The notes below the pieces were generated by a model. The model saw nothing but the letters and a program-made list of their open reading frames with translations, was not told where the DNA came from and made no database searches. Shown here in pieces: positions 42,401 through 64,000 of a stretch of 64,000 nucleotides of DNA. Each line of letters opens with the position of its first letter. Position 1 is the first letter of the stretch. Where the stretch lies: IMG/VR virus record IMGVR_UViG_3300021140_000485. One strand, 5' to 3'. This DNA is from a virus. Lineage: Duplodnaviria; Heunggongvirae; Uroviricota; Caudoviricetes. Position numbers and translations under genes: made by a program.

Positions 42401-42602
42401 TGTTTGTAACTGTATTAGCACTTAAATTTGTATTTTGTACTTGGAATATAGGTGCTGTCTTGGCAATTTTTAGATATGTTGTTGTTTGATTTACAACATA
42501 ATTCAATGTAGAACTAGAATATACCAAATCACTTCGAGTATTCCCCGAATCATAAAATTGTATTGTTATACTTGCAGGTACTATTATTATATTCTCAGCC
42601 AC
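39444..42602 (-). CDS. Collagen-like (Gly-X-Gln triplet) fibre protein with a C-terminal intramolecular-chaperone / peptidase S74 domain. Candidate tail fibre.
   Basis: About 290 uninterrupted G-x-Q triplets. The C-terminus '[12 protein letters not shown]....FKWR......GFIAQEV' matches the SDxRLK auto-cleaving chaperone signature. The N-terminal roughly 90 aa is non-repetitive. Confidence 0.85.
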
Positions 42603-46017: not shown

Positions 46018-46020
46018 ATA

Positions 46021-49000
46021 TTAATTTCTTTCAACCTTTTCTTCTAAATTTGTTAATAGAGAATCCAAGTCATCAATAAATACTTGTTGCTCTTTTATGG
46101 CTTCTACTAAATAAGCGTTAAGTGAGGTATAGTTTAAACTATAATAACCGCCACCCCTTAATTCAATTATATCTGGTATTACACTTCTAACTTCTTGTGC
46201 AATAAAACCAAACGAGTGTAGTTTACCATCTCGTTTCATTGCCTCATAGTTGGGGTCTAATTCGTTCCAATCAAATTCAACAGGATTTAATTGTAAAACA
46301 CTTTCTAACGAGTTTTCAATAGTAGTAATTTCTTGTTTTAAACTAATATCTGAAGGACAAGTATTAGGAACACCAATAATTAAACAACCTCCTGTGTCTA
46401 GGTCGTAATAAAGTGATGATAAGTCATACCATACGGGAGCAGGTAAAGGAGTTACACAACTAAGATTTGCACAGTCAGTCGCATTTTCAAACACAGATGT
46501 GTTGTTAGTCCAAGTAGTAATATCGTCTGGCGAGTATATGTCCCCATAAAATCCGCGGTTTAATGAACAAGCACTACCCGGGTCACCCGCATAATAACCT
46601 GAATATTGAAAACAAGATGCTGATGGTGGTCCTGCCGGTCCTGGCGCTCCAGGAGCACCCTGAGCACCTTGTGGTCCCGTATCACCTTGAGCTCCCGTAG
46701 CACCTGTTAGTCCGTCGGCACCTGCAGGTCCTGGTGCTCCTTGAGCACCTTGTGTTAACCCTTGTGCACCTTGTGGTCCTTGAGCGCCTTGTGCACCTTG
46801 TGGTCCTTTTGCACCTGTAGGTCCTGGTGCTCCTTGTGCACCTAATGGACCGGCACCTCTAAGTTCCCCTATTCCCCCTTGAGCCCCCTGAGCACCTGAT
46901 GGTACAATTGGTGTAGGTCCTTGAGCACCTTGTGCACCTTGTCCTCCACCTGCTCCTTGAGCTCCTTGGAATCCAAGAGGTCCTTGAGCACCTTGAGTAG
47001 CACCTGTTGGTCCTTGAGCCCCTGTAGCACCTTGTGGTCCAGGAAGTCCAGCAATTCCTTGTGTTCCAACATTTCCTTGAGCACCTGTAGGTCCGGGAGA
47101 ACCTTGAGCACCTGTTGCACCGATATTTCCAATAGGACCAGGACCTGTTCCTTGAGCTCCTTGTGGTCCTTGAACACCAGGAAATCCTGTGTTTCCTTGT
47201 GCACCTGTGGCACCTGTTGCACCTGTTGGTCCAACATCTCCTTGTGAACCTTGAAATCCAAAAGTACCGGTACCACCACCAGCACCTGTATTTCCAACAT
47301 CACCTTGTGCACCTGAAAAACCTGTGGCACCTTGAGCTCCTTGAGAACCTGTAGGCCCAACCGGACCTGTTGCTCCACCCGCTCCTTGAGAACCTTGAGC
47401 TCCTGTAGCACCAGTATTTCCAACATTACCTTGTGAACCTTGAGCTCCTTGAGCCCCTTGTGGTCCTCCTCCTCCCACAGGACCCGCAAAACCTGGAAAT
47501 CCTGTAGAACCTTGAGAACCTTGAGCTCCTTGAGCCCCTTGTGGTCCAACGGCCCCTTGAGAACCCTGAGCTCCTTGAGCTCCTTGAGCACCTATTGTAC
47601 CTGAATTACCTGTTGGCCCAAAGACTCCTACCGTTCCTTGAGCTCCTTGTGCTCCTTGTGGTCCTCCTGAACCTTGTGGACCTCGAGCCCCTTGTGAACC
47701 CTGAGCACCTTGTGCTCCTTGTGCACCCACATTACCTGTAGGTCCAACGGCTCCTTGTGAACCCTGAGCACCTTGTGCTCCTTGTGCACCTTGGTTACCT
47801 GTAGGTCCAACGGCTCCTTGTGAACCTGTATTACCTTGAGCTCCTTGGTTACCGGTATTTCCTTGGGCTCCTGTATGTCCTGTTGAACCTTGTGCTCCTT
47901 GAGCTCCTGTTGCACCTCCATTACCTGTTGGTCCAACCGCTCCTTGGAAACCTGTGTTACCTTGTGCTCCTTGATTACCTGTGTTTCCTTGTGCACCTGT
48001 ATGTCCTGTTGAGCCCTGAGCACCTTGTGCACCTGTTGCCCCACCATTACCTGTAGGCCCTACATTACCTTGTGAACCTTGAGCCCCTTGTGCCCCTTGA
48101 GCCCCTTGAGCCCCTTGTGGTCCTACATTACCTTGTGAACCTTGTGCTCCTTGTGCTCCTTGTGGTCCTGTTGAACCTGTTGGTCCGACATTACCCTGAG
48201 CTCCCTGATTACCTTGAGCACCTGTTGGCCCCACGTTTCCTTGTGCACCTGTGTGTCCTGTTGAACCCTGAGCACCTTGTGCTCCTGTAGCTCCCGCATT
48301 ACCTGTTGGTCCTACGTTACCCTGAGAACCTTGATTTCCTTGTGCACCTGTATTACCAGTATTACCTTGAGCACCTGTATGTCCTGTTGAACCCTGAGCG
48401 CCTTGTGCTCCTGTCGCACCTCCGTTACCTGTTGGTCCGACATTACCCTGAGCGCCCTGATTACCTTGTGAACCTTGTGACCCTGTTGCACCTGTTGGTC
48501 CGACATTACCTTGTGCTCCCTGATTACCTTGTGAACCTTGTGACCCTGTCGCTCCTGTTGGTCCGACATTACCCTGAGCACCTTGATTACCTTGAGAACC
48601 TTGAGCTCCCACATTACCTTGTGCACCAGGATGTCCTGTTGAACCCTGAGCTCCTTGAGCACCTGTCGCACCTCCGTTACCTGTTGGTCCGACATTACCC
48701 TGAGCACCTTGATTACCTTGAGAACCTTGAGCTCCCACATTACCTTGTGCGCCAGGATGTCCTGTTGAACCCTGAGCTCCTTGTGCACCTGTCGCTCCTC
48801 CGTTACCTGTTGGTCCGACATTACCCTGAGCGCCCTGATTACCCTGAGCACCTGTTGGTCCCACGTTTCCTTGTGCACCAGGATGTCCTTGAGAACCTTG
48901 AGCATTTGCTGAACCTTGAGCTCCTTGATTACCCTTTCCACCTTGTGAACCTTGTGAACCCTGAGCACCCGTATTTCCAATGGCTCCTTGAGCTCCTTGA

Positions 49001-49284
49001 TTACCTTGGAATCCTGTTATATTTGTTCCAGGTCCTAACCAAGCACCTGTACCATTTAATACTTGAATTCCTCCAATAGTTAGATTATTAATGATATTAA
49101 TATCATCATACGCTTGGATACCACCCGATGACATTAATAATGTAGAACCCCACTTTATAGAAGTACCAGCACCATAAGGTCTGACCTCTAACCTCAAAGT
49201 TCCCGTATTTTCAAAATCAATATAGGGAATCCTTCCGGGATTCGGGACTAAATTACCAGGTACAATTGTTATATTTTTTGCCAT
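46021..49284 (-). CDS. Collagen-like fibre protein paralogue 3 with a Cys-rich linker and a C-terminal S74 chaperone domain.
   Basis: G-N-x / G-A-Q triplets. The C-terminus is '[13 protein letters not shown]...VEFDWNE...FGFIAQEV'. Confidence 0.85.
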
Positions 49285-49345: not shown

Positions 49346-49627
49346 TTAAATAATATGTTTTTTGATTATATCAACAGCTTCAGTTAATTCATTATAGTCC
49401 CTATCAGGAGTATACATATGAGGAATGGTTTTTTCTTTAGTTTCTTCAATAATGAGTAATGCTGGTACAAAATCATTTTCTGTTAATTGTGAAAAGATAT
49501 CATACTCTTCTTCATACTCATCAATGTCTCTATCAACGAAGTCAATGTTCTCTTTGACTAACATCTCTTTGAAGTCAGTACAATGAGGACAGCCTTTCAT
49601 TGTATAAACAATAATTGTTTTACTCAT
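49346..49627 (-). CDS. Glutaredoxin/NrdH-like small redoxin (CPHC).
   Basis: 'VYTMKGCPHCTDFKEML'. 93 aa. Confidence 0.65.
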   Translation of the reverse strand: MSKTIIVYTMKGCPHCTDFKEMLVKENIDFVDRDIDEYEEEYDIFSQLTENDFVPALLIIEETKEKTIPHMYTPDRDYNELTEAVDIIKKHII

Positions 49628-49944: not shown

Positions 49945-50253
49945 TTAGTTTTTTTTATTTAAAAGTGACCTTAAATATATTTCCACAACGTTCATTTTTT
50001 CAGGTAAGAAATAACACACAATACTAAATCGTGTATTACTATCCCATTCCTGTACGTGTAGATATATTTGTTCTTTTTTATTCGCCGAGTAAATCATCTC
50101 TCTAAGATTATTTGTAGGGTAACTATCCTTTACGTATACCAATTCAAGCTTGTTGAATTTTTTACCGTCAATATCAACGTTCCCTAAATTAAACTCTGAA
50201 AATATAACCCCCTCTTTTTGTTCAATACTTTCAATATACCTCGGTCTTTCCAT
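49945..50253 (-). CDS. Hypothetical protein.
   Basis: 102-aa ORF. Confidence 0.45.
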   Translation of the reverse strand: MERPRYIESIEQKEGVIFSEFNLGNVDIDGKKFNKLELVYVKDSYPTNNLREMIYSANKKEQIYLHVQEWDSNTRFSIVCYFLPEKMNVVEIYLRSLLNKKN

Positions 50254-50305
50254 AATATTATTTTACTACAAAATATATGAAAATAAAAAAGGGAGTAAAC
50301 CTCCC

Positions 50306-50593
50306 TTAATTTAAAAATATCTTACCGAAAGCATTTTCAATAAATTGTATTTGTTCTCTGTGTTTTTCTTTGTTCTTCTTAGGTCCACCATTCAACTTCA
50401 AACATATATCAATATATTGTGATTGTGTTAAAGTTATTTCTTCACCACTATCAAAGTTTTGTTGTGCAACCTTTTCGATTTCTTTGTAAAACTCTTCTTT
50501 CTTTTCTAAGGGAACAAGACTTTTTAAATCATCTTCATTAGAATTGAAAAACTTCTTAACTCCTGCAATGTAAATTTTTACATCAACACTCAT
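50306..50593 (-). CDS. Hypothetical protein.
   Basis: 95-aa ORF. Confidence 0.45.
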   Translation of the reverse strand: MSVDVKIYIAGVKKFFNSNEDDLKSLVPLEKKEEFYKEIEKVAQQNFDSGEEITLTQSQYIDICLKLNGGPKKNKEKHREQIQFIENAFGKIFLN

Positions 50594-50611
50594 AACAATA
50601 AAATTTAATAA

Positions 50612-51946
50612 TTATCTTCTTCCTTCTAACTCTGTGAAGTCATATAGACCTGGACCAACCTCGAATGCCACATCAGTGATTTCCTTAGGTAATACTATAT
50701 TATTTGAACCCATAATATTCATAATCATAATCTCAGGTAAAGTGGCAACACACGCAGGTATTGACTTAACCTCAGGACAATTTAGAACTGCAAAATATGC
50801 TAATTTTTTAAGTTCACATATCGCATCAGGAACACTAGTTATACACCCATCAAATGTAAGCCTATCTAAGTTTGTGAATCTTGAAATTGTATCAGGAATT
50901 CTAAATGTAATTGGTGTTCTAGTGTTTCTAGTTGAGATATTAATTTTGTGTATGTCGTCAGGTAATGAATCAAATAACTCATCCAAACCATACAACCCAA
51001 TAAACTTACCTACAGAACCAGACTCAAAGTTATCAATAACCAATTCTTTACCTTGGTGTGTTAAACCTTTAGCAAATTCAGGTTTGAAGTAATCTTTAAG
51101 TTCTGCCATAGGACCGTTCAAATACTCAATTAAATTAACACTACGGTCATCCTTATCCATAAACTGATTTGATTGGAAATGGAATTGGTATCTTTCTTTT
51201 GGTAATCCTGTTGTTGGAGATACATTAGTATCATTTGGATTATAGATAACATACAAAGGTCCGTCTTTAATGTATCTATCGAAGTAACTTAAACCAGGTG
51301 CTGAAGTACACCAACGAGTCTCTTGTTGATTACCACCGTAAAAACAAGCGGCTTCTTTACCTCTTTCTCCTTTATCAGATATCTTAATAACTCTCCAATT
51401 TTTACCCTCAAATCCAGATTCAGCACCAGGGTGTACTGGCGCAGCCTTTCTTTCGGCTTTAGTTGTTGTCGCCATAGTTAAGTCAAAGTCCTTAACAGCA
51501 TCGTATAAAGCTTCAGGTGTTAGTTTATTGATATCCCTCATTTCAAGAGGTAACTTACCTTTAAACCTTTTAAACTTGGTCAAATCCTCAGTCACTTTGT
51601 AAAGGTCTTCCATAAACCTTTCTCTCATAACTTTAACTTCTCTCTCGTGACCTTGTTCACCTCTTGGGATTTCAGTCTTAACGTTCATATAACTCTTAAT
51701 TAACCAAGGAGTGTATTCACCAACTTTAACTCGAGATAATTCCTCTTTTGATGCTCTTTCCAAATCAACATCATTTAAACGAGATGTTGGGTCGGCTTGG
51801 ATTAATTCGAAGAACTCTTGTTTGCTCAATGGAGCCTTTAAAGGTTTACCTTCTTTATCTTTTTTAGGTAATACAAACTTATCCATCAAAACTTCAAGTC
51901 TTGATTGTTCCAATATGATTTTCTTAAGTACGTTTGCGAACTTCAT
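50612..51946 (-). CDS. Hypothetical protein with a C-terminal leucine-rich-repeat-like region.
   Basis: The C-terminal roughly 120 aa has an 'L..L.L..C..I..IP..I..L' periodicity. The middle contains 'ETRWCTSAPGLSYFDRY'. Confidence 0.55.
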   Translation of the reverse strand: MKFANVLKKIILEQSRLEVLMDKFVLPKKDKEGKPLKAPLSKQEFFELIQADPTSRLNDVDLERASKEELSRVKVGEYTPWLIKSYMNVKTEIPRGEQGHEREVKVMRERFMEDLYKVTEDLTKFKRFKGKLPLEMRDINKLTPEALYDAVKDFDLTMATTTKAERKAAPVHPGAESGFEGKNWRVIKISDKGERGKEAACFYGGNQQETRWCTSAPGLSYFDRYIKDGPLYVIYNPNDTNVSPTTGLPKERYQFHFQSNQFMDKDDRSVNLIEYLNGPMAELKDYFKPEFAKGLTHQGKELVIDNFESGSVGKFIGLYGLDELFDSLPDDIHKINISTRNTRTPITFRIPDTISRFTNLDRLTFDGCITSVPDAICELKKLAYFAVLNCPEVKSIPACVATLPEIMIMNIMGSNNIVLPKEITDVAFEVGPGLYDFTELEGRR

Positions 51947-51992
51947 TATCTTACAAATTTAATAATAAATATACAATTAACCACAAATTATT

Positions 51993-52877
51993 CTAATAAT
52001 TCATTATAAGAATCTCTTCCCCCATATTTTGAGTTTTACCTTTGGTTGCCGCAGCTGCCTTGGCAAAAAGTTTTTTCTCCCATCGATACTTGTCTTCAGG
52101 GAACCAAGTATGTAGTAATTCAAAATCATAATAGGATAAACTGAATTTACCCTTAACCTCATCTAATACATTTGCCAACCTTTCGTGGTCGTCTCTATCA
52201 AAATCGTGATTTGAGTAGTAGTTCTCAGTTTTCCAATATGGTGGGTCCAAATAAATGTATGTAGTTGGTGAATCATACTTAGCAATTACTTCAGCAAAAT
52301 CCATATTTTCGACCACACTAATTTTCAAGAAATGTTCCACCCACTCAGGCTTAGATAACTTATCCCTAAATGTTAGATACTTTGACTTGTATTTACCTTT
52401 CAAATCAATGAACGAACTTGTTTCTGGTCTACTCCCACTAAACACTTGTGTTAGAACATATGCATATTTTGCCGCAATATTATAATCAGGATTATTAATC
52501 TCTAACCCGTCCGAAAATAATTCTCTCTGGAACTCCACAAATTGTTCTTTATAGATTGTAGGAGTTGTCTCCTCTCCAAGTTGTTGACAAGGAATTGAAT
52601 TAACAGCCTTGAGTAGTTCTTTTGGATTCTTAAGACAAGAAAATAAATTGTGATTCAATGGATTAAAGTCGTTGTAAACAACAGTTTTTAAATTAGGGAA
52701 TTTTTTTAAATCCATATTATAAAAACACCAAAACATTCCTCCGAATGTTTCAACATACGTTTCCATATCTGTTGGATAGAAATCAACTATCCATTTACCA
52801 ATCTTACTTTTACCTCCAATATAACTGAGCATAGAATTCTTTTTTACAAAGATAAGAATTAGATTCTTAAAAAGCAA
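51993..52877 (-). CDS. dam: Dam-family (D12 class) DNA N6-adenine methyltransferase. The likely true start is the internal 'MLSYIGGKS' at 52832.
   Basis: 'SYIGGKSKI' (motif I region) and 'YLDPPYW' (motif IV, DPPY). Confidence 0.8.
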   Translation of the reverse strand: MLFKNLILIFVKKNSMLSYIGGKSKIGKWIVDFYPTDMETYVETFGGMFWCFYNMDLKKFPNLKTVVYNDFNPLNHNLFSCLKNPKELLKAVNSIPCQQLGEETTPTIYKEQFVEFQRELFSDGLEINNPDYNIAAKYAYVLTQVFSGSRPETSSFIDLKGKYKSKYLTFRDKLSKPEWVEHFLKISVVENMDFAEVIAKYDSPTTYIYLDPPYWKTENYYSNHDFDRDDHERLANVLDEVKGKFSLSYYDFELLHTWFPEDKYRWEKKLFAKAAAATKGKTQNMGEEILIMNY

Positions 52878-52909
52878 CCCCCAATGTTAAGTTTTTTCAA
52901 GATATTGAT

Positions 52910-52954
52910 ATATGTTAACACAACCTTATACTTATGTTAAGAGAGTGTTAACAC
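52910..52954. promoter_or_regulatory. Two copies of the palindrome-containing motif TGTTAACAC, 24 bp apart, in the divergent promoter region between the dam gene and gene 52985.
   Basis: Direct reading: 'ataTGTTAACACaacc' and 'gagTGTTAACACtttt'. Confidence 0.4.
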
Positions 52955-52984
52955 TTTTCATAAACCAAAATAAATTAAAATAAA

Positions 52985-53227
52985 ATGAAAAAGTTTTTAT
53001 TGGTTTTAATGATGGGTTTATTATTCACACCATCATTCGCTCAAGGCGGAAAAGGAAAGAAGAAACACAAGACACAACAAAATACAGAAGTTGTGTCAGA
53101 AGTGCGACCAATTCATAGACAACGTTGGGTTGAAAGGGATGGTGAGTATTATGTCATCGTTTCAAGAACCACAATAAGTAAAGAAGATTATCTAAGACTT
53201 AGAGAGCTTCAGAGAAACAATCACTGA
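52985..53227 (+). CDS. Small secreted protein (signal peptide 'MKKFLLVLMMGLLFTPSFAQ').
   Basis: 80 aa, basic. Confidence 0.55.
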   Translation: MKKFLLVLMMGLLFTPSFAQGGKGKKKHKTQQNTEVVSEVRPIHRQRWVERDGEYYVIVSRTTISKEDYLRLRELQRNNH

Positions 53228-53264
53228 TAACAGTTTTTGTATGGGCGACAAGACGCTTTTTGAG

Positions 53265-53296
53265 AAAACCCCATCTTGCTACACGGGGTTTTTTTA
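53265..53296 (+). terminator. Intrinsic terminator (AAAACCCC-n12-GGGGTTTT followed by a T-run).
   Basis: Lies downstream of gene 52985..53227. Confidence 0.5.
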
Positions 53297-53522
53297 CAAT
53301 ATGATTGACTCCACTTACGAGGTTTTTTGAAATTAGATTTACTTGCCTCGTTTGTTTGAATATATTCTTTAATAATTGATTTAATTAAATCTCTCATAAT
53401 AATAAATACTATGGCTTGTCAAGATTGTAAAAAAGGTTCACCAATAAGATTAACTAAAAATCAGTGGTTGTCATTGATTGCCGGAGCATATATGGTTAGT
53501 GCTACGATATACACCACTTATG

Positions 53523-54458
53523 TTATTTTTCGTTGGCTTCTAAAGTAGCCTTATCGAACTTAACACTTAATTTAACATACATATACGCCCCGTTGAATCC
53601 TTTACCTTTTAATCTCAACGGTACGTTACTATCAAACACTTTAGGTGCGGCAACTTTCAATTCACCATCGGGATGTGGGATAGTATAATAATCCTCAGTT
53701 AAATCTTTATAATCCAATACGAGATTATAAATCAAATCATCCCCCATTTTTTGAAATCCTTCTGATTCAACAATTTCTATTTTTAAGATTAAATCTCCAT
53801 ACATACCTTGTTGGAAGTCACCCTTTTGGTCCATCTTGAAGAACTGACCTTCATCAACCCCTTTAGGTAAGTTTACACTTATACTTTCAAATTTCTTTGT
53901 TGTACCAACACCAGAACAATTACTACAGAATCTGGCTAAATTATACCCTTTACCCTGACATTGTGGACAAGCACTTCTAACTTGTTGTTGGAAGAATCCT
54001 GAACCAAGGATTTGAGTGATAGCACCTGTGCCACCACATCCATTACAACCAACTCTATCACCACCAGAACCTGAACAACTATTACAAGCAACATCTCTTT
54101 GGTAACTTAAGTTTTTAGTAACCCCCTTATAAGATTCTAAAACACTGACATCAACCTTTAAAACTTTATCAGGAACTTTTCTATGTCTTGGATTACCTCT
54201 CCCCCCATTTTGAAACATCTCTCTAAAAAAGTCCTCAAATTGAGAACCTGCAAAGGGATTGTTTTGTGAGTTAAGATATGATTCTTTTTTAGACGGATTT
54301 GATAATATATCATACGCCTCGGCGATTTCTTTAAACTTTTCAGCACCTTCAGGGTTTACATCTGGGTGATATTGTTTACTTAATTTCCTATACGCTTTTT
54401 TGATTTCATCGTCAGACGCGTTTTCAGAAACACCTAAAATTTCGAAATAATTTTTCAT
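53523..54458 (-). CDS. DnaJ/Hsp40-like co-chaperone (J domain plus four CxxCxGxG zinc-finger repeats plus a C-terminal domain).
   Basis: 'YHPDVNP' HPD motif. 'CNSCSGSG', 'CNGCGGTG', 'CPQCQGKG', 'CSNCSGVG'. Confidence 0.85.
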   Translation of the reverse strand: MKNYFEILGVSENASDDEIKKAYRKLSKQYHPDVNPEGAEKFKEIAEAYDILSNPSKKESYLNSQNNPFAGSQFEDFFREMFQNGGRGNPRHRKVPDKVLKVDVSVLESYKGVTKNLSYQRDVACNSCSGSGGDRVGCNGCGGTGAITQILGSGFFQQQVRSACPQCQGKGYNLARFCSNCSGVGTTKKFESISVNLPKGVDEGQFFKMDQKGDFQQGMYGDLILKIEIVESEGFQKMGDDLIYNLVLDYKDLTEDYYTIPHPDGELKVAAPKVFDSNVPLRLKGKGFNGAYMYVKLSVKFDKATLEANEK

Positions 54459-54469
54459 TCAGCTATTAT

Positions 54470-55111
54470 ATGAACTTCTATATTGTATTGTTTAAGGATA
54501 AGACTAAGAAAAAGATAATAAAGAAATTTTCTAATTCAAAAAAAGCCGAGGATTTTTATAACGAAATGTTAAAAGAAAATAAAAGTGTTATTTTTGAAAA
54601 GTTATTTGATAACGGGAAACCCTCAAAATACGACATTGGTTTATTGTCAGATAAAAAACCAAAATCAAATCAAATCTATATTCAAGATGAGATTGGTAGA
54701 AATATTAAAGTAACATTTGAGGATGATTCTTTTACCGCAATAAAAATATCACCATACAAAGTTGAAGAAACTATATTCGATATTTCCAATAATAAAAAAA
54801 TATCAATAACCGATTTTGTTTCCTTATTAAAAAAGGACGATAGTTTAAAAGTTATCTATCCTCTTAACAACAAAATTATATTGCAAAATGATGATAACTT
54901 AAAACTATTCTCATTAAAAAGTGAGAGTGAATGTATGAGGTTCATTGAGTGTTTATCTGAACATATCTACACTCAAAAAAGAAAAGATTGTATGTTTGTG
55001 AATGATACTTCCAAACCTCAAAAGAAATATCTAATTAAATTACTTTCAGAATATGGGTTTGATAAAAAAATGTTATACCGTAAACACACTACTTATCCTC
55101 GGTCAACATAA
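54470..55111 (+). CDS. Hypothetical protein.
   Basis: 213-aa ORF. Confidence 0.5.
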   Translation: MNFYIVLFKDKTKKKIIKKFSNSKKAEDFYNEMLKENKSVIFEKLFDNGKPSKYDIGLLSDKKPKSNQIYIQDEIGRNIKVTFEDDSFTAIKISPYKVEETIFDISNNKKISITDFVSLLKKDDSLKVIYPLNNKIILQNDDNLKLFSLKSESECMRFIECLSEHIYTQKRKDCMFVNDTSKPQKKYLIKLLSEYGFDKKMLYRKHTTYPRST

Positions 55112-55319
55112 AATGAAAATCAACCCCTGATATTTCAACAGTAAACTGGTTGTGATGTCTGTCAATTTCCCTGAATTTTCCAATCATTTTACTATAGTCT
55201 TCTTTATTTAATTCAAAAACAACTATTGTGTCACCTTCAGGAAAAAGGTCAACCAAATAATCAGACAGTAATGCCATCTTTCCTAATTCGTCCAGAGAAT
55301 TCTCTTTATCTTGCTCCAT
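55089..55319 (-). CDS. Hypothetical small protein.
   Basis: 76-aa ORF. Confidence 0.4.
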   Translation of the reverse strand: MEQDKENSLDELGKMALLSDYLVDLFPEGDTIVVFELNKEDYSKMIGKFREIDRHHNQFTVEISGVDFHFMLTEDK

Positions 55320-55465
55320 AATGTTTCTTTTGGTTTGACGAATAATTCATCTTTTTTTAGTTTTTTAAGTTCTTCAGCGAACTTAGTCTTTTCGTTGTTT
55401 AACTCGGCTTGGTCTTTATCAATTTCCTTCTTCAGCCAGTTCAACATTTTCTCCTCGTGGCTCAT
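55283..55465 (-). CDS. Hypothetical small protein.
   Basis: 60-aa ORF. Confidence 0.35.
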   Translation of the reverse strand: MSHEEKMLNWLKKEIDKDQAELNNEKTKFAEELKKLKKDELFVKPKETLWSKIKRILWTN

Positions 55466-55856
55466 CTATAATATCAAGTAATTGTGGTTTATCTCCAAAC
55501 TCAAATTGTAAGGTCTTTAAAGTGTCTAAATCTCTCTTAGCAAAAGTTTCTTTAAGTTGTTGTACCGCAAGATTGAATAATTCATCTTTCATTTCACGTT
55601 CCTTATTCAATCTAATAACTTTATTGATACCTGTAATTGTTTTCTCAAAAGATATTTCACTCATTTCACAGACAAAACTAATTCCTTTCATATTTTCCAC
55701 GCCAGAATCAAATGGAACAATACTACAAATCTCTTGAATTGATTTTGGTAATCCCCAATTTGAGGGGAAGGCTAAGTCTATAGACATATAAGTCTCAAGT
55801 TTTCTCATTGAGACAAAGTAACTCCCGAAGGATTCTATGTGTTGGTATAAGTTCAT
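55419..55856 (-). CDS. Hypothetical protein.
   Basis: 145-aa ORF. Confidence 0.5.
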   Translation of the reverse strand: MNLYQHIESFGSYFVSMRKLETYMSIDLAFPSNWGLPKSIQEICSIVPFDSGVENMKGISFVCEMSEISFEKTITGINKVIRLNKEREMKDELFNLAVQQLKETFAKRDLDTLKTLQFEFGDKPQLLDIIDEPRGENVELAEEGN

Positions 55857-55892
55857 ACTTGTAAAATATAGGTTAAAATATAACTAATAGAA

Positions 55893-55947
55893 AGCCCAAA
55901 AAACAATAAGTCCCTGTTAGATAACTTAAGTTCGTTTCCTAACAGGG
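55893..55947 (-). terminator. Intrinsic terminator (CCCTGTTAG-n18-CTAACAGGG, then a T-rich run on the minus strand).
   Basis: Perfect 9-bp stem, 3' of the Hc1-like gene. Confidence 0.55.
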
Positions 55948-56035
55948 CCCCTATTAATCTTACGAGGTTCCTTAAACTAACCAATATTGAAAATATAAAC
56001 ACAAATAAAAAAATAGTGTTAATATTCAACATAAC

Positions 56036-56209
56036 TTAGTCTTTTTTACTCTCATCCAAAATCTCTACGCGAAGTTGTTGTAACAAAGCTTTCAATTCTT
56101 GACAAGTCTTTCTAGCTCTTGTACCGGCACTTTTATTACCTTTGTAGAACTTCTCCGTGTCAAACGATAGAGTTTCGGTTAAATCTTTAATTTGCTTCAA
56201 AGTTTCCAT
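56036..56209 (-). CDS. Histone H1-like nucleoid protein (Hc1-domain), 57 aa, not in the ORF track.
   Basis: Manual translation gives 'METLKQIKDLTETLSFDTEKFYKGNKSAGTRARKTCQELKALLQQLRVEILDESKKD'. The 'KGNKxAGTRxRK..QELKA' core is typical of Bacteroidetes Hc1/histone-H1-like proteins. Confidence 0.6.
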   Translation of the reverse strand: METLKQIKDLTETLSFDTEKFYKGNKSAGTRARKTCQELKALLQQLRVEILDESKKD

Positions 56210-56280
56210 TTTCAATTAAAAATAAAATCTGTTTATTTGTTGGTTTAATTATAATATAGATTAAACCATAATCAACCCAA

Positions 56281-56745
56281 TTATAAATGAATTACAGAAC
56301 GATTAAATAGTTTATAAACCTCTGTTAATATATCCAGGTCAGATTTAACAAAAGTTTTGTCTAAGTCAAATAAGTCTTTTACAAATAAGTTGATTGATTT
56401 TCTGATGTTCTCATCTTTTTGATTATAAAAGCTGTCGTTCATAAACACCTTCATATAATCTTTATGTTCACCATCAGAATCTATGAGAATATTTTCCTTT
56501 TGGAAGTTTTCTAATATTTTGTTCCAACACCAATTAAAGTGATTTGTTATATCTTCTTCAGAAAATTTAATTTTAGTTTCTAATGTGTCGTCACCAAGAT
56601 ATGTTGTTACCACTAATGTGGTTAAAGATTCAACAATATCATTAAATAACTCAACCCTTTCAGGTATCATATTATGGATATTAAACCATATCTCAACGTC
56701 TTCCTTTGGCACAGGTTGGGTTATCCAATTATAAAAATTCTCCAT
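56281..56745 (-). CDS. Hypothetical protein.
   Basis: 154-aa ORF. Confidence 0.5.
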   Translation of the reverse strand: MENFYNWITQPVPKEDVEIWFNIHNMIPERVELFNDIVESLTTLVVTTYLGDDTLETKIKFSEEDITNHFNWCWNKILENFQKENILIDSDGEHKDYMKVFMNDSFYNQKDENIRKSINLFVKDLFDLDKTFVKSDLDILTEVYKLFNRSVIHL

Positions 56746-56791
56746 AGTTTCCTATGGAGAATCATAAAATCAAATTATATTAATTGTAGTG

Positions 56792-58531
56792 TTATTGAGT
56801 TTTTTTGTTATAATCAACAAGACTTTTCATTTTTTGAATCTCTTCAGAAATTAATTTCTCTTGTTTATTTTCTTTACTCTCACCTAATTTTTTGAAGATG
56901 TCTTGTGATTTTTTAGCACCTTTCTTAAGTTTCAAATCACCTTGTTCTGTTGACTCACCAGCTTGGTCCACAGGTTGTGGATATCTCTTATAAGACGCGT
57001 TCATTTGTTCTGCACCATAAACATTATCCTCAAAGTTTTTATACATCTTTTCACCAAGTTCTGATGGAACAACATTACCTAAAGCATTCCCATCTTTGTC
57101 AACTTGAGCATTACCCGTTTTAGATGAACCTTTTAAGTTAGCCTCAATCCACTCATCATTTGGTTTAATCTCGTCATAAACCAAATTAGTCATACCAGGA
57201 TATGCAAAATCGTCAATGTATTCCTCAACAGCATCTGAAGCTTTATAAGCTTTCTTAGGTGTTTCTTTCATTTCACCGTTACCCCTTGGGAATTTCTTAG
57301 GTTCCATATCATATTCACCTTCAGAAGCATCTTTTAAATACTCTTTCATCTTCTTAACAGTGTCTTTGATGTGTTTGTCATTAACCTCTTTGTTTTTCTT
57401 TTCAACCTTATTGAAATCGGGTTCAACTGAAGAACTTTTTTTACTAATATTTGATTGTTCCATTACAATTCTTTCAATTAAATCAATTATTTCATTTTCA
57501 GTCAATTTAACACTTTCATTAACTTTAGCTTTACCTTTACCAGGCCAATCTTTTTTAGCTCTTTTTGCAAAGTATAATTGACTCATTTTTGTCTTATCAG
57601 TATGTGGTACTTTCTTACCATCATCTTTTAATTTCTGAGTCTTGTCTTTCAATTTTTTGATTGCCTTATCTAAATCATCAATTGTCATATCAGAATATTG
57701 ACCAGTTTGTTTAACATCAACATTTCCTTTCCACTTTTCAGTAACTTCATATTTTTTACCGTCAACAGTAAAACTATCTTTACCTTCTTTCTTAGCCTTT
57801 GCTAAAGCCCCTGAGAATGCATTACCTTCTTCAGTCTCTCCTTGTTCACCCATTCTTTGTTTTTTTATATCCGAGTAAACACCAATAACTTTAGATGGTC
57901 TACCATCAAACTCATCTCTATCTTCTTCACCAATATCCATTCTTTTTTTACGTAATTTCAATGGTCCCCATTTGTCACGATATGTGTTAAATATTCTTCT
58001 ACCACTATCACTTTGGTCTCCACTTTGAAACCACCTTTGATTGCCAGCCTTTTCAGTAAATGAATCATAATCATCAAACTCTTCCTCGTCATAATCAAAA
58101 TCAAAACCACCAGTGTACTCTCTATCCCTTTCATCAGTCCAATACTCTTTATCACCTCTGTTTTGACCTAAAAATTTACTTTCATTGAATTCTTTAGCAA
58201 CTTTCTTTTCGTAATTGTATCCTACATTTTTAACCTTGCCTACTTTTTTAGGACTATCAGTTTCAAAATCACCGTAAGGTTTAACCCCTTCAATGTCATC
58301 ATCACCCATAGTGTATTCTTTCATAGGTTTTTTCTTACGTAGAAGTTTGAAGTCCCCAGCATCTATTTTATTATTCTTGTTCTTGTCTAACTCACTTTGT
58401 CTACCGTGTAGTTTTTCAGTGGTTTCAACTTTTTTGGCAATTTCAGAAACAATTTGGTCAGCCTTAGCCTCCAAAGCTTCATTTAATGCTTTTTCAACGA
58501 TGTTGTCAATATATTTTGAAAAATTGTCCAT
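56792..58531 (-). CDS. Large Lys/Glu/Asp-rich hypothetical protein.
   Basis: 579-aa ORF with a highly charged, low-complexity composition. Confidence 0.6.
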   Translation of the reverse strand: MDNFSKYIDNIVEKALNEALEAKADQIVSEIAKKVETTEKLHGRQSELDKNKNNKIDAGDFKLLRKKKPMKEYTMGDDDIEGVKPYGDFETDSPKKVGKVKNVGYNYEKKVAKEFNESKFLGQNRGDKEYWTDERDREYTGGFDFDYDEEEFDDYDSFTEKAGNQRWFQSGDQSDSGRRIFNTYRDKWGPLKLRKKRMDIGEEDRDEFDGRPSKVIGVYSDIKKQRMGEQGETEEGNAFSGALAKAKKEGKDSFTVDGKKYEVTEKWKGNVDVKQTGQYSDMTIDDLDKAIKKLKDKTQKLKDDGKKVPHTDKTKMSQLYFAKRAKKDWPGKGKAKVNESVKLTENEIIDLIERIVMEQSNISKKSSSVEPDFNKVEKKNKEVNDKHIKDTVKKMKEYLKDASEGEYDMEPKKFPRGNGEMKETPKKAYKASDAVEEYIDDFAYPGMTNLVYDEIKPNDEWIEANLKGSSKTGNAQVDKDGNALGNVVPSELGEKMYKNFEDNVYGAEQMNASYKRYPQPVDQAGESTEQGDLKLKKGAKKSQDIFKKLGESKENKQEKLISEEIQKMKSLVDYNKKTQ

Positions 58532-58571
58532 ACGATTTTTAATTATAAATATCCACGATTATGTAATCGTT

Positions 58572-59543
58572 TTATTTTTTGTTTTTAGTTTTTAGATTGT
58601 AATAAAGTATCTTTTTGATTATTTGTTCATCAACACCCAATTTTTGACTAGCCGAATTAATTGCTTCTTTAACTGAACCATTTTCAAAAATTTTAACTGC
58701 ACCTGCCCCTTGATTACAATAGGGAAAGGTCAAACATTTCTTTTTGACCTTAACAAACTTTCCTCCTTTATAAATTGGTTTCTTACCCCCTCTCCAGTTT
58801 TTCTTATTTTTAGCAATAAATGCCGGTGTTGAGTAAGCTCCTACTGAGGCTGACGTAGTTGCTTCTGTTGCTTCAACCTTTTCTATATCACCTTCTTTAC
58901 TCTCAATCTTAGATAATTTTGTATAGTAATGTGGGTCTTCATATAAATGGTCTTTTGCAATCTCCATTGCAATTTTAATACTATCGGTATGTTCTAATTC
59001 AGTTTTAACACCCTTAACAAGTTCTTTCTTTAAGGTTTTAAACACATCTTCAATTTCACCCTTCATTTTACCTTTAGAGTGCATTTTAGCAATATCCTTA
59101 AGTGTTTTACCTTTGGCTAAACCACCAGGTATCTTTTCAGTTTCATTTGTTTCCTCTTTAGTAAATAATGGTGCTGAAAATGGACCTGCAGATGATGCAC
59201 CTGTTGCCTCATCAGCCTCTATTTTATTAACCCTACCATATTTTTTCTTTTTTACAAATGGGTCATTAGACGCCGCATTTGGAACACCGTAACTGTATTG
59301 GTCACCAGTGTCTTTATCGTGTTTTCTAGATTTTTTCTTAAACTCAACAAAATCAGAATCTAATTTCAAATCTTCTTTGAATTTATTTTTAGCATCTTCG
59401 TATTCAGATTCTTTTGTCTCACCCTCCATATTCATAGAATATTTCAAAGCATCCCCAATAGTGTCAGAATTTAATTTGACATTCGGCTGTGATGTATAAG
59501 CCGCCATAATACCTTTTTTAAATAAATCTGAACTACTTCTCAT
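58572..59543 (-). CDS. Lys-rich hypothetical protein.
   Basis: 323-aa ORF. Confidence 0.55.
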   Translation of the reverse strand: MRSSSDLFKKGIMAAYTSQPNVKLNSDTIGDALKYSMNMEGETKESEYEDAKNKFKEDLKLDSDFVEFKKKSRKHDKDTGDQYSYGVPNAASNDPFVKKKKYGRVNKIEADEATGASSAGPFSAPLFTKEETNETEKIPGGLAKGKTLKDIAKMHSKGKMKGEIEDVFKTLKKELVKGVKTELEHTDSIKIAMEIAKDHLYEDPHYYTKLSKIESKEGDIEKVEATEATTSASVGAYSTPAFIAKNKKNWRGGKKPIYKGGKFVKVKKKCLTFPYCNQGAGAVKIFENGSVKEAINSASQKLGVDEQIIKKILYYNLKTKNKK

Positions 59544-59544
59544 C

Positions 59545-59790
59545 TTATGCGTTTCTTAATCTTGGTTCCCAATATGAACGGTTCATCCACATAAATTGGT
59601 AGAACTCTCTAAACATTCTTAAAGTAATATCTTTAATGTCTCCTTGAAGTTTACCTCTTTTTATTTCTTTGGCAATCGTGTCCATCATTTTGTCTTCGAA
59701 TTGCTTAATAGTATTAGTATTCATAAAGCTCTTTATTTCTTTACGAATTAATACCTCTATTTCTTTTACGTCTGAACTTGTTAGTGCCAT
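59545..59790 (-). CDS. Hypothetical small protein.
   Basis: 81-aa ORF. Confidence 0.45.
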   Translation of the reverse strand: MALTSSDVKEIEVLIRKEIKSFMNTNTIKQFEDKMMDTIAKEIKRGKLQGDIKDITLRMFREFYQFMWMNRSYWEPRLRNA

Positions 59791-60218
59791 TACTTTGTTA
59801 TGTATAAATAACTCAAAGTCAGAATTATTGCTCCTGAAATTATCTGAGAAAAAGTTTTTTTTGTTTTAACTTTTCTTAATTCTTTTTGAGTGGTTTTTAT
59901 CTCATCGTTTAAGATTTCATTTTTTCTTTTTTCACTTTCAACTAAGGTAATGTAATTATCCTCTTTTGACTTTAGTTTTTGTATTACTGAATCTTGATAA
60001 GTAACTTTTAATTCTAATTGTGTGATTTGAATATTAGCCAAAGATAATTGAGCAATCGCCGAATCACCCCTCATCAAATCTTTAACAACCTCTCTAGCAA
60101 CTTTAACAGGTAAAACTACTACCTGGCTATCTTTACTTTGAGTAACGGTCTGTGAAAAACTTGGTAAGCTCAGTGTCAGTAAAATTACTAACAGAATTAA
60201 TCTTTTTACCATATTCAT
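59790..60218 (-). CDS. Secreted coiled-coil protein (signal peptide 'MNMVKRLILLVILLTLSLPSFSQ'). Spanin-like partner candidate; no lipobox Cys.
   Basis: Its start lies 86 nt inside the preceding TM/coiled-coil gene, in another frame. Confidence 0.5.
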   Translation of the reverse strand: MNMVKRLILLVILLTLSLPSFSQTVTQSKDSQVVVLPVKVAREVVKDLMRGDSAIAQLSLANIQITQLELKVTYQDSVIQKLKSKEDNYITLVESEKRKNEILNDEIKTTQKELRKVKTKKTFSQIISGAIILTLSYLYITK

Positions 60219-60501
60219 TCCCTACTTTAATTCTAATCTCTTTTATTTGTTGTATACTGTTGTTTGTCTCTTCAATTTTAACTTCATACTTTTCAATCTC
60301 AGTTTGTAGTTTCTCTTGTTTTTTTTCGATATTTTCAATCTTATTATTTAACTCTCTAATTTCAAAACGAGCTTCTTCACTCATCTTACTTAAAGGTGTT
60401 AAAACAAAAATCATCCAATACAATATAAAAAGACACACAACAAATATTAATATAGATTTGTAGTTGTTCTTAATATATGATATGATTAGATTACTCTTCA
60501 T
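60133..60501 (-). CDS. N-terminal TM anchor plus coiled-coil protein (i-spanin-like topology).
   Basis: 'ILIFVVCLFILYWMIFVL' TM segment, then a heptad-rich region. Confidence 0.5.
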   Translation of the reverse strand: MKSNLIISYIKNNYKSILIFVVCLFILYWMIFVLTPLSKMSEEARFEIRELNNKIENIEKKQEKLQTEIEKYEVKIEETNNSIQQIKEIRIKVGNEYGKKINSVSNFTDTELTKFFTDRYSK

Positions 60502-61066
60502 CTTGTGTTGTTTGTTTTCTTGAAGCTAAAACCCTCGACCACTTAACTTTAAATTTATCGTAAAAACTTTTTAACTTATTAATTGTTTCTAAAGTCTCAT
60601 CATCAACTTTCAACATATTCCCGTTGATGTAAGTACCACTACTTTCACCAATAGTATAAATAAAATCAATATCTTTATCGATAATTTTACCTGACCATTC
60701 AACAGTAGTTGGGTATAGGTTTAATTGATTAAAATCTGAAAGGTCTGAAACCTCTTCAGAGAAGTCATCCATAGTCTCTTGGAAAGCAACTTTATCGTCA
60801 GTTGTAATGTCTGTATCAGATTTTTCTTTTCCGTGAATGGCTAGTATCCCACCTGATATTCTATATTTTTGGACATACTCATCGTCAGCCTCTTTTTCTT
60901 TACCATTCTCAGCAGTATCGTATTCATCCTGTTCGATTTCATCTTCGATACTCTTACCAATATTCATTGGTCCAAGTTTTTCGGCGTTTAATTGTTCCAT
61001 CACCAATCTTGATGTCTTTAACAAGTCTTTAATTTCGTCGTACCTATTGTTCGCTAAGTTGTTCAT
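60491..61066 (-). CDS. Acidic hypothetical protein.
   Basis: 191-aa ORF. Confidence 0.5.
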   Translation of the reverse strand: MNNLANNRYDEIKDLLKTSRLVMEQLNAEKLGPMNIGKSIEDEIEQDEYDTAENGKEKEADDEYVQKYRISGGILAIHGKEKSDTDITTDDKVAFQETMDDFSEEVSDLSDFNQLNLYPTTVEWSGKIIDKDIDFIYTIGESSGTYINGNMLKVDDETLETINKLKSFYDKFKVKWSRVLASRKQTTQDEE

Positions 61067-61655
61067 CTTCTATTTGTTTTTTGAATGATGTGAAAGGAAA
61101 TGCAGGACTTAAATCTGTAAATCTTTGGTCATAATTACTTCTTGAAACTATTCCCTTGAAGTTTTCGATGCCATCGAATTTTGTATTATGCCCTACGAAT
61201 TTATTTGGTATTGAAAATTTCTCACACAACATTTTACAAAGTTCAACAGATTTCTCGATTTGAACATCCGTGTATGGTTGCCAAAAGAAATAGTCTCTCC
61301 ACTTCTTTTCATATACATTATCTTTATAAATATTACCAATCCAATTCAAGTAGTGTTCAGAAAGAGGTTTTTTATTTAACCATCCATAGTTTTCAAAACA
61401 AACAATTATATGATTTTTTTTAATCCTATCATTAATTAAAAAATCACTAGTGTAATTCGGTGATAATATCTCTAATACTCTACCTTCTCGAGTTATTAGA
61501 TAGTGAGGTAACTTAGTATAGTTACCCCCCATTCTAAACTTAAGGGAGGTCAAGTATTCACTTGCCTCCCTTGATGTATGACAGAGCACAATCTGTCTTT
61601 TTTCTTTAAGTTTTTTTTGTGTCTTAAATTTACCGTAAACGATTACTTCATCCAT
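61044..61655 (-). CDS. N-acetylmuramoyl-L-alanine amidase-like (Amidase_2/PGRP fold) protein.
   Basis: 'IVLCHTS' plus 'HYLITREGRV' fit the Zn-binding His / substrate region of type-2 amidases. Moderate support. Confidence 0.5.
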   Translation of the reverse strand: MDEVIVYGKFKTQKKLKEKRQIVLCHTSREASEYLTSLKFRMGGNYTKLPHYLITREGRVLEILSPNYTSDFLINDRIKKNHIIVCFENYGWLNKKPLSEHYLNWIGNIYKDNVYEKKWRDYFFWQPYTDVQIEKSVELCKMLCEKFSIPNKFVGHNTKFDGIENFKGIVSRSNYDQRFTDLSPAFPFTSFKKQIEDEQLSEQ

Positions 61656-62328
61656 TTCGTCCTGTATAGGATAGTCGGTTTATATTGTTTTGTTCTTCGG
61701 ATAAATTTTCAAACTTTTTCCTGTTCATTTCATCAAGAAGTTTTTGTAGTCTTTCAATCTCTTCTTGTGACGCTTTTAACCTTTCATTCTCATCTCTTTC
61801 GAATTCTTTCTTAGCAACTTCTTTCGATATTTCGTCAATGTCAACGTCAGGTGGTAAAGTTTTCTTATCCTGTTCCTCAAATTTAACTAACATATGTAAA
61901 AACGAAAGAGAAATTAGTGGTAACATACCACCAGCAAAGAACGCTAAGAATCTTTTATGTGACACAAGGTTACCAGATTCAACTCCAATATATGAAACGA
62001 GAGGGTCTGTCATTTCAACCCAACTCTTGAACATATCTCCATTCATATCAATATACTGATAAGCAAAAAATATGTTACCAATAAATTGTATTAATGTTAC
62101 AATACCAAATGGTAAATAAACTTTTCTACCCATTTGTGCTGATATTGCAGCAAGTGCTGACAACGCAGCAATTTCAATACCTACTGATAGATAGATTGCC
62201 CAAGTAACAGGATTACTTATTCCATACCAAGTAGTAACGTGAGATATTGAAACAAATGCAACTGTTAGAATTGGAATCAAAAATGCAAAGTAGATGATTT
62301 TTTTAAAATTCCTTTGTATCCAATTCAT
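61648..62328 (-). CDS. Multi-pass membrane protein with a C-terminal coiled coil (holin-like or infection-related).
   Basis: 4-5 hydrophobic helices followed by 'EEIERLQKLLDEM'. Confidence 0.55.
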   Translation of the reverse strand: MNWIQRNFKKIIYFAFLIPILTVAFVSISHVTTWYGISNPVTWAIYLSVGIEIAALSALAAISAQMGRKVYLPFGIVTLIQFIGNIFFAYQYIDMNGDMFKSWVEMTDPLVSYIGVESGNLVSHKRFLAFFAGGMLPLISLSFLHMLVKFEEQDKKTLPPDVDIDEISKEVAKKEFERDENERLKASQEEIERLQKLLDEMNRKKFENLSEEQNNINRLSYTGRNG

Positions 62329-62330
62329 AG

Positions 62331-62618
62331 TTATTTCATTTTAGCTTCTAATGACGAAATTTCATTGTCAATTTGAGTTTGTCTATTAACATCTAAAATT
62401 TTTCTATCAGTTGATTGAATCATTCTTTTTTCGGATTTCAACCCTTCAATCTGAAGTCTTAAATTCAATTCTTCTTTAGTGTATGTGGAGTCTTTGATTA
62501 CACCAATCTCTTTTCTAATTTTTGACAACTCACGAGTGTCTCCACAACTTTTGAAGAAACTCAACACCGCAATTACCAAAACAATCACAGTGAAATTCTT
62601 TTTAATAAATTCTTTCAT
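62331..62618 (-). CDS. Small signal-anchored coiled-coil protein.
   Basis: 'FTVIVLVIAVLSFF' TM segment. 95 aa. Confidence 0.5.
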   Translation of the reverse strand: MKEFIKKNFTVIVLVIAVLSFFKSCGDTRELSKIRKEIGVIKDSTYTKEELNLRLQIEGLKSEKRMIQSTDRKILDVNRQTQIDNEISSLEAKMK

Positions 62619-62650
62619 AGTTTTTTTTTATAAATAAATATCCAAAAATC

Positions 62651-63460
62651 TTATAGATAATCAAAAAGTTCACTAGACTCATTACGCAACTTACGTAAAG
62701 CCTTCTCTTTAATTTGTCTAACACGTTCCTTAGTTAATTGGAAGTCATTACCAATATCTTCAAGTGTACGGGTATTTCCTGACAATCCGTAGTAATCTTC
62801 AATGATAATTTTTTCACGGTCATCTAAAACTTCTAAGATACCTTTCAACTTGTCTTTAAGGATGTCTTTTGTATGAAATCCGGAGTCAGGTGCCAAAGCA
62901 TCAGGATTACTCAAAACATCCAACAAAGTATCACCATCTTCATTGAGGGGATTATCATAATTAACCGTATAAGGAAGGGTTACAAACTTTTCGGGTAACT
63001 CAACCCCACTCTTCTCAAGTTCTTTTTTAGCCTTTTGAAGTTCTTGAACAACATTCACAGGAAGACGAATAGTTCTCGCATTCTCGTTAAGTGATTGTAG
63101 GATTGATTGTCTTACCCACCAAACCGCATATGAAATAAACCTTAGCTGTTTGGACCAATCGAAATTTTCAACAGCTTTAAGTAATCCAAGATTACCTTCA
63201 GCAATTAGGTCACAAAGTTCTAATCCTTGATTTTGGTATTGTTTGGCAACAGTAATTACAAATCGGAGATTACCTGTTAACAATTCTTGTTCAATTTGAC
63301 GTTTCTCTGTTAACGTCAAATCATCCGATAACATTCTCTGAGCGAGTTGTTTTTCTCTATCAGGTGTCATAACTTTTATCTTACGAATATCTTTAAGATA
63401 AGTTGCAATCTCTTCTTGATTAATAGGGATACTTAAATTTTTGTCTTTCATATGTCTCAC
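62651..63460 (-). CDS. Sigma-70 family RNA polymerase sigma factor.
   Basis: Region 2 'FISYAVWWVRQSI' and 'LIAEGNLGLLKAVENFD'. Region 4 HTH 'RTLEDIGNDFQLTKERVRQIKEKALRKLR'. Confidence 0.85.
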   Translation of the reverse strand: MRHMKDKNLSIPINQEEIATYLKDIRKIKVMTPDREKQLAQRMLSDDLTLTEKRQIEQELLTGNLRFVITVAKQYQNQGLELCDLIAEGNLGLLKAVENFDWSKQLRFISYAVWWVRQSILQSLNENARTIRLPVNVVQELQKAKKELEKSGVELPEKFVTLPYTVNYDNPLNEDGDTLLDVLSNPDALAPDSGFHTKDILKDKLKGILEVLDDREKIIIEDYYGLSGNTRTLEDIGNDFQLTKERVRQIKEKALRKLRNESSELFDYL

Positions 63461-63999
63461 TTAATGTAGGTTTTTAAAATTTGTTGTTCTTCTTCTGTTA
63501 GTGTTTCAAGTCCTTGGTCGTATATTTTTTCTAAAAGGTCGTCTAATGTAGGTATCTTGATTTTGTTTTTTGAGCGACGAATGATATCAATAATGTCGTC
63601 TTCATCATCATCGTCATCTTCATTTTCAAGAAATTCTAATATTGAAAACCCTTCCGTTCCATTCTTAACATTCGTCATATTAACAGATGACAAATTTAGT
63701 TCCGAATTTGGATTATCGATGTTAAAAAACCACTTTTCGTCATCATCAGGTAAAAAGACTGACATATTGTCAGTTTCACTGACAAAAATTCCATATATGT
63801 TACCGTAAAAAGCATCGTGAACATATGATTTAATCTCATCTTTAGTCATTTCACTCTTGAAATGAAAAAAAAACAAACCTGAATTGTAAAGATAAGAAAA
63901 ATTTTCAGACCCAACGACTGGTGATACCACCATAATAATATCGTTTTTGTGTTTGTCGTTAAAGTCCTTAAAAGAGATAATTAAGTTGTACTTTGTCAT
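63457..63999 (-). CDS. Acidic hypothetical protein with a poly-Asp/Glu stretch.
   Basis: 180-aa ORF with 'EDDDDDEDD'. It may be truncated at the window edge (its start at 63999 is inside the window). Confidence 0.5.
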   Translation of the reverse strand: MTKYNLIISFKDFNDKHKNDIIMVVSPVVGSENFSYLYNSGLFFFHFKSEMTKDEIKSYVHDAFYGNIYGIFVSETDNMSVFLPDDDEKWFFNIDNPNSELNLSSVNMTNVKNGTEGFSILEFLENEDDDDDEDDIIDIIRRSKNKIKIPTLDDLLEKIYDQGLETLTEEEQQILKTYIK

Positions 64000-64000
64000 A

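Follow-up and report, generated by a model that had tools for sequence, protein, structure and literature searches.

The minus-strand gene at 56036..56209 of the window (the whole 64,000-nt stretch of phage DNA analysed here) encodes a 57-aa protein, METLKQIKDLTETLSFDTEKFYKGNKSAGTRARKTCQELKALLQQLRVEILDESKKD, which belongs to the Hc1 family (Pfam PF07432) and, judging from its sequence, corresponds to the N-terminal two-helix domain only, without a Lys-rich DNA-binding tail. The occurrence of an Hc1 gene in jumbo phages of this kind has already been published (PMC12619734), and the only new element is a clade-specific module composed of the Hc1 gene, an adjoining miniprotein gene and an RNA hairpin.

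The open reading frame (ORF) extends from an ATG at 56209-56207 to a TAA at 56038-56036, exactly where the initial annotation had placed it, and the gene is present as a single copy in the 64,000-nt window. A scan of IMG/VR yielded 146 viral Hc1 loci, 80 of which were retrieved on contigs of up to ~326 kb and were combined with the window to form a set of 81 phage orthologues. An in-frame TTG is found at 56215, two codons 5' of the ATG; it is not the start of Hc1, because the orthologues (81 of 81) begin with M-E/D-T at the aligned ATG. The proposed family membership was confirmed by a Pfam HMM search, in which Hc1 (PF07432) was matched with an E-value of 4.7e-20 and 71.6 bits (gathering cut-off 23.5) and residues 1-56 were aligned with profile positions 1-57 of 57, i.e., over the full length of the profile. 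Protein searches of a 5.8-billion-protein collection revealed 321 homologues; the best 120 of them are 72-98% identical to the query, PF07432 is present in every one, and most are 56-60 aa long. The gene had been described as unannotated, which is true only insofar as it falls under a 60-aa ORF cut-off: public assemblies contain the exact 57-aa protein in 310 indexed blocks, where it is already called as a PF07432 gene, and it recurs in hundreds of metagenome assemblies. PHROGs v4 contains no family for Hc1, PADLOC returned only weak, compositional matches for Hc1 and its neighbours, and an exact-octapeptide scan of genome contigs for Hc1 gave no match.

For so short a frame in a genome of ~31% GC, where many ORFs of such length arise by chance, the possibility that this is a random ORF and not a gene has to be weighed. 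The Pfam match, the intact ORF with the same start in all 81 loci, a dN/dS of ~0.11 (Nei-Gojobori, 741 pairs) and a third-position bias (32, 21 and 52 of 53 sites variable at the first, second and third codon positions, respectively) speak against this reading, which was rejected and to which we assign practically no probability. The frame is thus kept in relatives, and the substitution pattern indicates that the gene is under purifying selection.

All 81 phage orthologues are 55-60 aa in length, none has a Lys/Ala-rich extension, and GNKSAGTRARK is invariant among them; within the phage clade, identity to the Hc1 protein of the window ranges over 71-98%. Twenty window proteins around Hc1 are colinear with nearly all of the 80 related loci. 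Median identities across these loci amount to 75% for Hc1, 77% for Dam and 75% for p81, and to 40-57% for most neighbours; apart from Dam and p81, no neighbour has a higher value than Hc1, which places Hc1 among the most conserved members of the colinear block. A megablast of window positions 50000-64000 against a phage collection gave no match, and no close sequenced relative is present in that collection.

The structure predicted by AlphaFold2 from a 37-sequence alignment is a two-helix hairpin (helices 2-22 and 26-56; pLDDT 96.8) in which the helices are joined at K23-G24-N25. The turn between them (residues 23-34, KGNKSAGTRARK) corresponds to the motif KGNK[SA/T]AGTR[AV]RK, which is common to cellular members of the family. 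In an alignment of the diverse family, R33 is invariant, and conservation reaches 90% or more at K20, N25, A28, R31, Q37, K40 and R47. Their i+3/i+4 spacing would bring R33, Q37, K40, Q44 and R47 onto one face of helix 2. The window protein contains 12 K+R and 10 D+E residues, with a pI of 8.8 and a net charge of about +2. A sequence search of the PDB found no solved relative of the Hc1 family, and Foldseek found no significant fold match in the PDB (best E 0.49); the nearest, non-significant shapes are generic dimerising helical hairpins, and ribosomal helical-hairpin proteins also occur among the weak matches.

Chlamydial Hc1 (HctA) is the experimental point of reference for the family. It compacts DNA and represses transcription and translation (PMC2848022, PMC12619734), and its N-terminus mediates dimerisation while its Lys-rich C-terminus binds DNA (Pedersen 1996 and Remacha 1996, via PMC2848022). 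The phage protein shares the homologous N-terminal domain with HctA, as indicated by Pfam Hc1 and by the NCBIfam HctA equivalog NF051889, which is matched over model positions 5-43 of 121 only and with 21.4 bits against a cut-off of 100. However, HctA is ~125 aa long and carries a Lys-rich, H1-like C-terminal tail, whereas the phage protein ends at residue 57 without it. Eukaryotic and giant-virus linker histones H1 have the name alone in common with phage Hc1: linker histone H1/H5 is a winged helix, whereas the phage protein is predicted to be a two-helix hairpin, and a linker-histone domain was absent from the Pfam scan even at E-values of up to 10. Of the earlier description of the gene as encoding a histone-H1-like small nucleoid protein, the assignment to the family and to its short, Bacteroidota-type form is correct; the DNA-condensing role, however, is extrapolated from chlamydial Hc1, and the label 'histone H1' oversells the phage protein, because the H1 resemblance of chlamydial Hc1 sits in the missing Lys-rich tail.

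The explanation that we favour, at about even odds, is that the protein is a dimeric alpha-hairpin nucleoid-associated protein, which contacts nucleic acid through its basic turn and helix-2 stripe and is made in excess over the products of downstream genes. Two alpha-hairpins would pair into a dimeric four-helix bundle, a proposal based on the dimerising role ascribed to the N-terminal domain of chlamydial Hc1 (PMC2848022). A basic surface formed by the turn (K20-K23-N25-K26-R31) and the helix-2 stripe (R33-Q37-K40-Q44-R47) would then contact nucleic acid, and the protein would act as a small nucleoid protein during infection, organising or silencing phage DNA, host DNA or both. The conserved polar stripe could equally be a protein-protein interface. 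Moreover, the only experimentally studied relative binds DNA through the Lys-rich tail that is missing here, and the basic residues of the phage protein barely outnumber the acidic ones; all DNA-centred readings are weakened, because the sole experimental precedent maps DNA binding to the absent part.

Short proteins of the same kind are common in Bacteroidota and their relatives. The core 'KGNKSAGTRARK..QELKAL', which the initial annotation had likened to small Bacteroidetes proteins, indeed matches short Bacteroidota/FCB proteins, e.g., 'KGNKTAGTRARKTLQELKKL' in Balneolales metagenome-assembled genomes (MAGs). A scan of one cellular genome per species with the pattern GNK[ST]AGTR[AV], which misses GNKAAG forms and thereby biases the list of taxa, detected 541 loci. 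The best 80 of these share 45-63% identity with the phage protein (65% over partial segments) and belong to Balneolales, Chitinophagales, Fibrobacterota, Ignavibacteriae, unclassified Bacteroidota MAGs and one Ectothiorhodospiraceae MAG; most of the encoded proteins have a length of 56-60 aa, and their median pI is 9.2. These FCB-group Hc1-only proteins, often annotated as 'histone H1', resemble the phage protein in their ~56-60-aa architecture, in the KGNK[ST]AGTR[AV]RK turn and in pI, and the phage protein is therefore a typical representative of this short, Hc1-only subfamily. They differ from it in sequence and in that no gene for a miniprotein with two transmembrane segments (two-TM) lies next to them. 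Within reach of the GNK[ST]AGTR[AV] pattern, the phage clade is distinct from every sequenced cellular relative. A literature search found no characterised short Hc1-only protein, the Bacteroidota forms included.

This relationship raises the question of whether the phage protein acts on its cellular counterparts, forming mixed dimers with short Hc1 proteins of the host and so disabling or redirecting host chromatin or regulation with no DNA action of its own. The domain retained by the phage is the one to which dimerisation is assigned in chlamydial Hc1 (PMC2848022), FCB bacteria encode potential partners of the same size, and the tightness and separateness of the phage clade (at least 71% identity to the window protein among its members, at most 63% for cellular proteins) fit a specialised role. 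However, phage and cellular proteins do not differ in architecture, and the phage protein is not a truncated, dominant-negative form of the latter; it also retains all of the basic residues that are conserved in the cellular proteins, which suggests the same biochemical activity. We regard such a partner or mimic of host Hc1 as unlikely.

Short stand-alone Hc1-domain ORFs are also found in other large phages, namely Synechococcus phage S-SRM01 (Kyanoviridae), where a 62-aa product is annotated as 'histone H1', and the huge uncultured phages LR756500 (57 aa), LR756502 and LR745206. In contrast to the orthologues described above, these copies are only 39-54% identical to the window protein, occupy different genomic contexts and have no two-TM partner; the low identity and different context suggest independent acquisitions. 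The paper describing S-SRM01 does not discuss its 'histone H1' gene.

The window encodes an RNA ligase (10014-11027), tRNA-Met (27170-27244), a glutamine-synthetase (GS)-like protein (33533-34696), glutaredoxin (49346-49627), the Dam methylase (51993-52877) and a full-length DnaJ (53523-54458), all of them auxiliary genes typical of jumbo phages. Together with a sigma factor, an Amidase_2 endolysin and collagen/S74 fibres, this gene content implies that the window is part of a large phage genome. Shine-Dalgarno motifs (AGGA, GGAG or GAGG at positions -20 to -4) precede 6 of 83 genes, which is below the 11% background, and the regions 5' of genes are A-rich; Shine-Dalgarno-independent initiation is characteristic of Bacteroidota. 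Moraphages are aquatic jumbo phages of 200-307 kb that encode GS and DnaJ/DnaK and have predicted Bacteroidota/Flavobacteriia hosts (Perez-Hernandez et al., Arch Virol 2025, PMC12619734). The window shares with them the GS-like gene, DnaJ, Hc1, the scarcity of Shine-Dalgarno sites and syntenic relatives on contigs of up to ~326 kb, and from this gene content it looks like a moraphage-type jumbo phage. PF07432 histone H1-like genes were reported in moraphages, where genome compaction or host shut-off was speculated (PMC12619734). That study treats the protein as a linker-histone homologue, without noting that the N-terminal domain alone is present, and makes no mention of a coupled miniprotein, a promoter or an RNA hairpin.

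A Bacteroidota host, which the initial annotation had derived from the Hc1 gene, is plausible in view of the Shine-Dalgarno count and of the host prediction in PMC12619734. The Hc1 gene itself is weak evidence for it, given that Hc1 is likewise encoded by a Synechococcus phage and by MAGs of Fibrobacterota and Gammaproteobacteria. An identical Hc1 protein with the same neighbours is encoded on the 45-kb contig JBFDLO010000116.1, filed in the NCBI assembly GCA_043534635.1, possibly a MAG bin; its placement there may be either a binning artefact or a host clue.

Several other loci of the window were recognised in the course of this analysis, all on the minus strand. Three tandem genes at 39444-49284, encoding proteins of 1052, 1140 and 1087 aa, combine collagen triple-helix repeats with a C-terminal Peptidase_S74 chaperone domain and are probably fibre genes; their GC content is 43-56%, compared with ~32% in the rest of the window. 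A probable lysis cassette at 59790-61655 consists of the Amidase_2 endolysin gene (61044-61655) followed by membrane/coiled-coil ORFs at 60133-60501 and 59790-60218, both with a weak similarity to Rz-like spanins. A sigma-70-family factor with regions 1.2, 2 and 4 (phrog_351, E 4e-53) is encoded at 62651-63460 and is ~74% conserved in 70 of the 80 related loci. The moraphage study describes no genes for RNA polymerase and makes no reference to a sigma factor (PMC12619734).

Two Lys/Glu-rich genes, 56792..58531 (579 aa; 17% K, 20% D+E) and 58572..59543 (323 aa; 18% K), had been placed downstream of Hc1 and proposed as further DNA-packaging or internal proteins. As they share the minus strand with Hc1, they are in fact upstream of it, and no finding ties them to packaging. 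Comparisons with PHROG, PDB and PADLOC gave no match for either protein, and the only domain found, DUF5661 in the 323-aa protein, is uninformative. They are poorly conserved, with ~40-45% identity over ~55-60% of their length in related loci. At 56736-56763 (minus strand), between the 579-aa gene and a 154-aa gene, a hairpin with a perfect 12-bp stem and a T-rich stretch behind it overlaps the start codon of the 154-aa gene; it is the sole match of the terminator scan near Hc1.

The genomic surroundings bear on whether Hc1 is a DNA-condensing protein that is made late and packed into the virion with the ~300-kb genome, an idea also raised in the moraphage paper. The family name and the chlamydial precedent of DNA compaction (PMC12619734, PMC2848022) are in its favour, as is the position of Hc1 ~5 kb downstream of the endolysin and the two spanin-like ORFs on the same strand, since such genes are usually late. 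Nevertheless, a net charge of about +2 is poorly suited to charge neutralisation, the near neighbours (the sigma factor, DnaJ, Dam and unassigned genes) are not recognisable structural genes, and the flanking Lys/Glu-rich proteins have no informative match. Virion packaging thus appears quite improbable to us.

Hc1 is separated from the upstream gene, whose stop lies at 56281, by a gap of 71 nt, which contains a promoter-like TTGATT-16 nt-TATAAT element at 56248..56275 on the minus strand (10 of 12 positions matched). Taken alone, this match in an AT-rich window is not above chance, with 78 such sites in the window compared with 65.9 +/- 7.6 in shuffled sequences. At the same place in 59 of the 80 related loci, with a median distance of 65 nt to the ATG, TTTAC(A/T)-16/17 nt-TAnnnT is found, an element that seldom precedes other genes of the block. 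This positional conservation suggests that Hc1 has a sigma-70-type promoter of its own. Of the 91 window genes, 13 have sigma-70-like sites in front of them, with no functional pattern, and the phage sigma factor could read these sites. The leader also carries an AATAAAC motif (56231..56237, minus strand), 28 nt before the ATG; (A)ATAAAC occurs ~20-35 nt before the Hc1 ATG in most related loci, and within the window AATAAAC is found 5' of only 4 of 91 genes.

The second gene of the module, p59tm (55853..56032, minus strand), encodes a 59-aa miniprotein with two hydrophobic segments and a GRAVY of +1.28. It is not called by public gene callers, has no Pfam or PHROG family, and gave only a weak compositional match to KwaA in PADLOC. 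Its ATG is located 3 nt 3' of the Hc1 stop in the window and overlaps that stop by 8 nt in most relatives; translation of p59tm is probably coupled to that of Hc1. Each of the 81 loci (45 unique sequences) has p59tm as an intact, ATG-initiated ORF of 59-68 aa. Serine codons have switched between families (AGT to TCT/TCA) while the motif ...LSISYIITY was kept; the intact ORFs and these motif-preserving switches show that p59tm is a real miniprotein. The Hc1-p59tm pair was not found in S-SRM01, in LR756500 or in the 80 cellular loci, and is therefore clade-specific.

An RNA hairpin is embedded in p59tm at 55905..55955 (minus strand), between the two hydrophobic segments. It comprises an outer stem (AAUAGG/CUUAUU) and a main stem (CCCUGUUAGG/UCUAACAGGG), has a dG of -24 to -25 kcal/mol (z -3.6), and is unique within the window rather than a repeated element; it has no Rfam family. 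Its pairing is maintained across 43 unique loci, with 78% of cells paired compared with 32-45% when the partners are slid, and with 92 double-change cells compared with 26 in shuffles, none of 500 shuffles reaching 92. RNAalifold independently recovers the main stem. The excess of G:U over A:C in the main stem (38 versus 5) marks it as a structure of the sense RNA as opposed to a DNA palindrome. The stem is kept, with covariation, in 40 of the 43 unique loci, the other three having no hairpin.

A U6 tract (55898..55903, minus strand) begins 2 nt after the stem, giving a terminator-like geometry. Hairpin and tract together lie 81-138 nt 3' of the Hc1 stop, inside the p59tm coding sequence. A terminator of its own had been claimed for Hc1. 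This claim probably reflects the strong hairpin followed by U6, which is a real element but lies inside a conserved gene: there is no intergenic terminator, because p59tm starts directly after Hc1, and a consensus terminator scan found none between the Hc1 stop and p59tm. Relatives keep the U tract less well than the stem, with a T-run of at least 4 after the hairpin in only 18 of the 43 unique relatives. Most likely the hairpin would attenuate or stabilise the transcript; as the tract is not kept in most relatives, it may be a processing, stability or translation element and not a terminator.

Hc1 is flanked by a leader motif and an RNA hairpin that are both conserved, which raises the possibility of a protein that binds RNA and regulates translation, with its own leader or the p59tm hairpin as a conceivable target. 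Chlamydial Hc1 binds RNA as well and represses translation in vitro (PMC12619734 ref. 57; PMC2848022), and ribosomal helical-hairpin proteins are among the weak fold matches. Nevertheless, none of those matches is significant, the RNA binding of Hc1 has been attributed to the basic tail, and cellular homologues lack a downstream hairpin context. An RNA-directed role therefore seems very improbable to us.

In the favoured explanation of a dimeric nucleoid-associated protein, the flanking elements would set its dose: with its own promoter, with coupling to p59tm, and with a hairpin that ends or stabilises a share of the transcripts, more Hc1 would be made than downstream products. A further, doubtful proposal is that Hc1 is no stand-alone 'histone' in this phage clade but forms, with the coupled p59tm, a fixed two-gene module in which the embedded hairpin sets the product ratio, and which could link DNA or nucleoid handling to the membrane.

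Phage-encoded nucleoid proteins are one route to the takeover or protection of DNA, and the strong conservation of Hc1 across more than 140 viral contigs suggests that the Hc1 domain does something important on its own. If the two-gene proposal were true, the module could anchor DNA at the membrane, or exclude it from there, during takeover or packaging, and would be the first handle on the role of the tail-less Hc1 proteins that are widespread in Bacteroidota.
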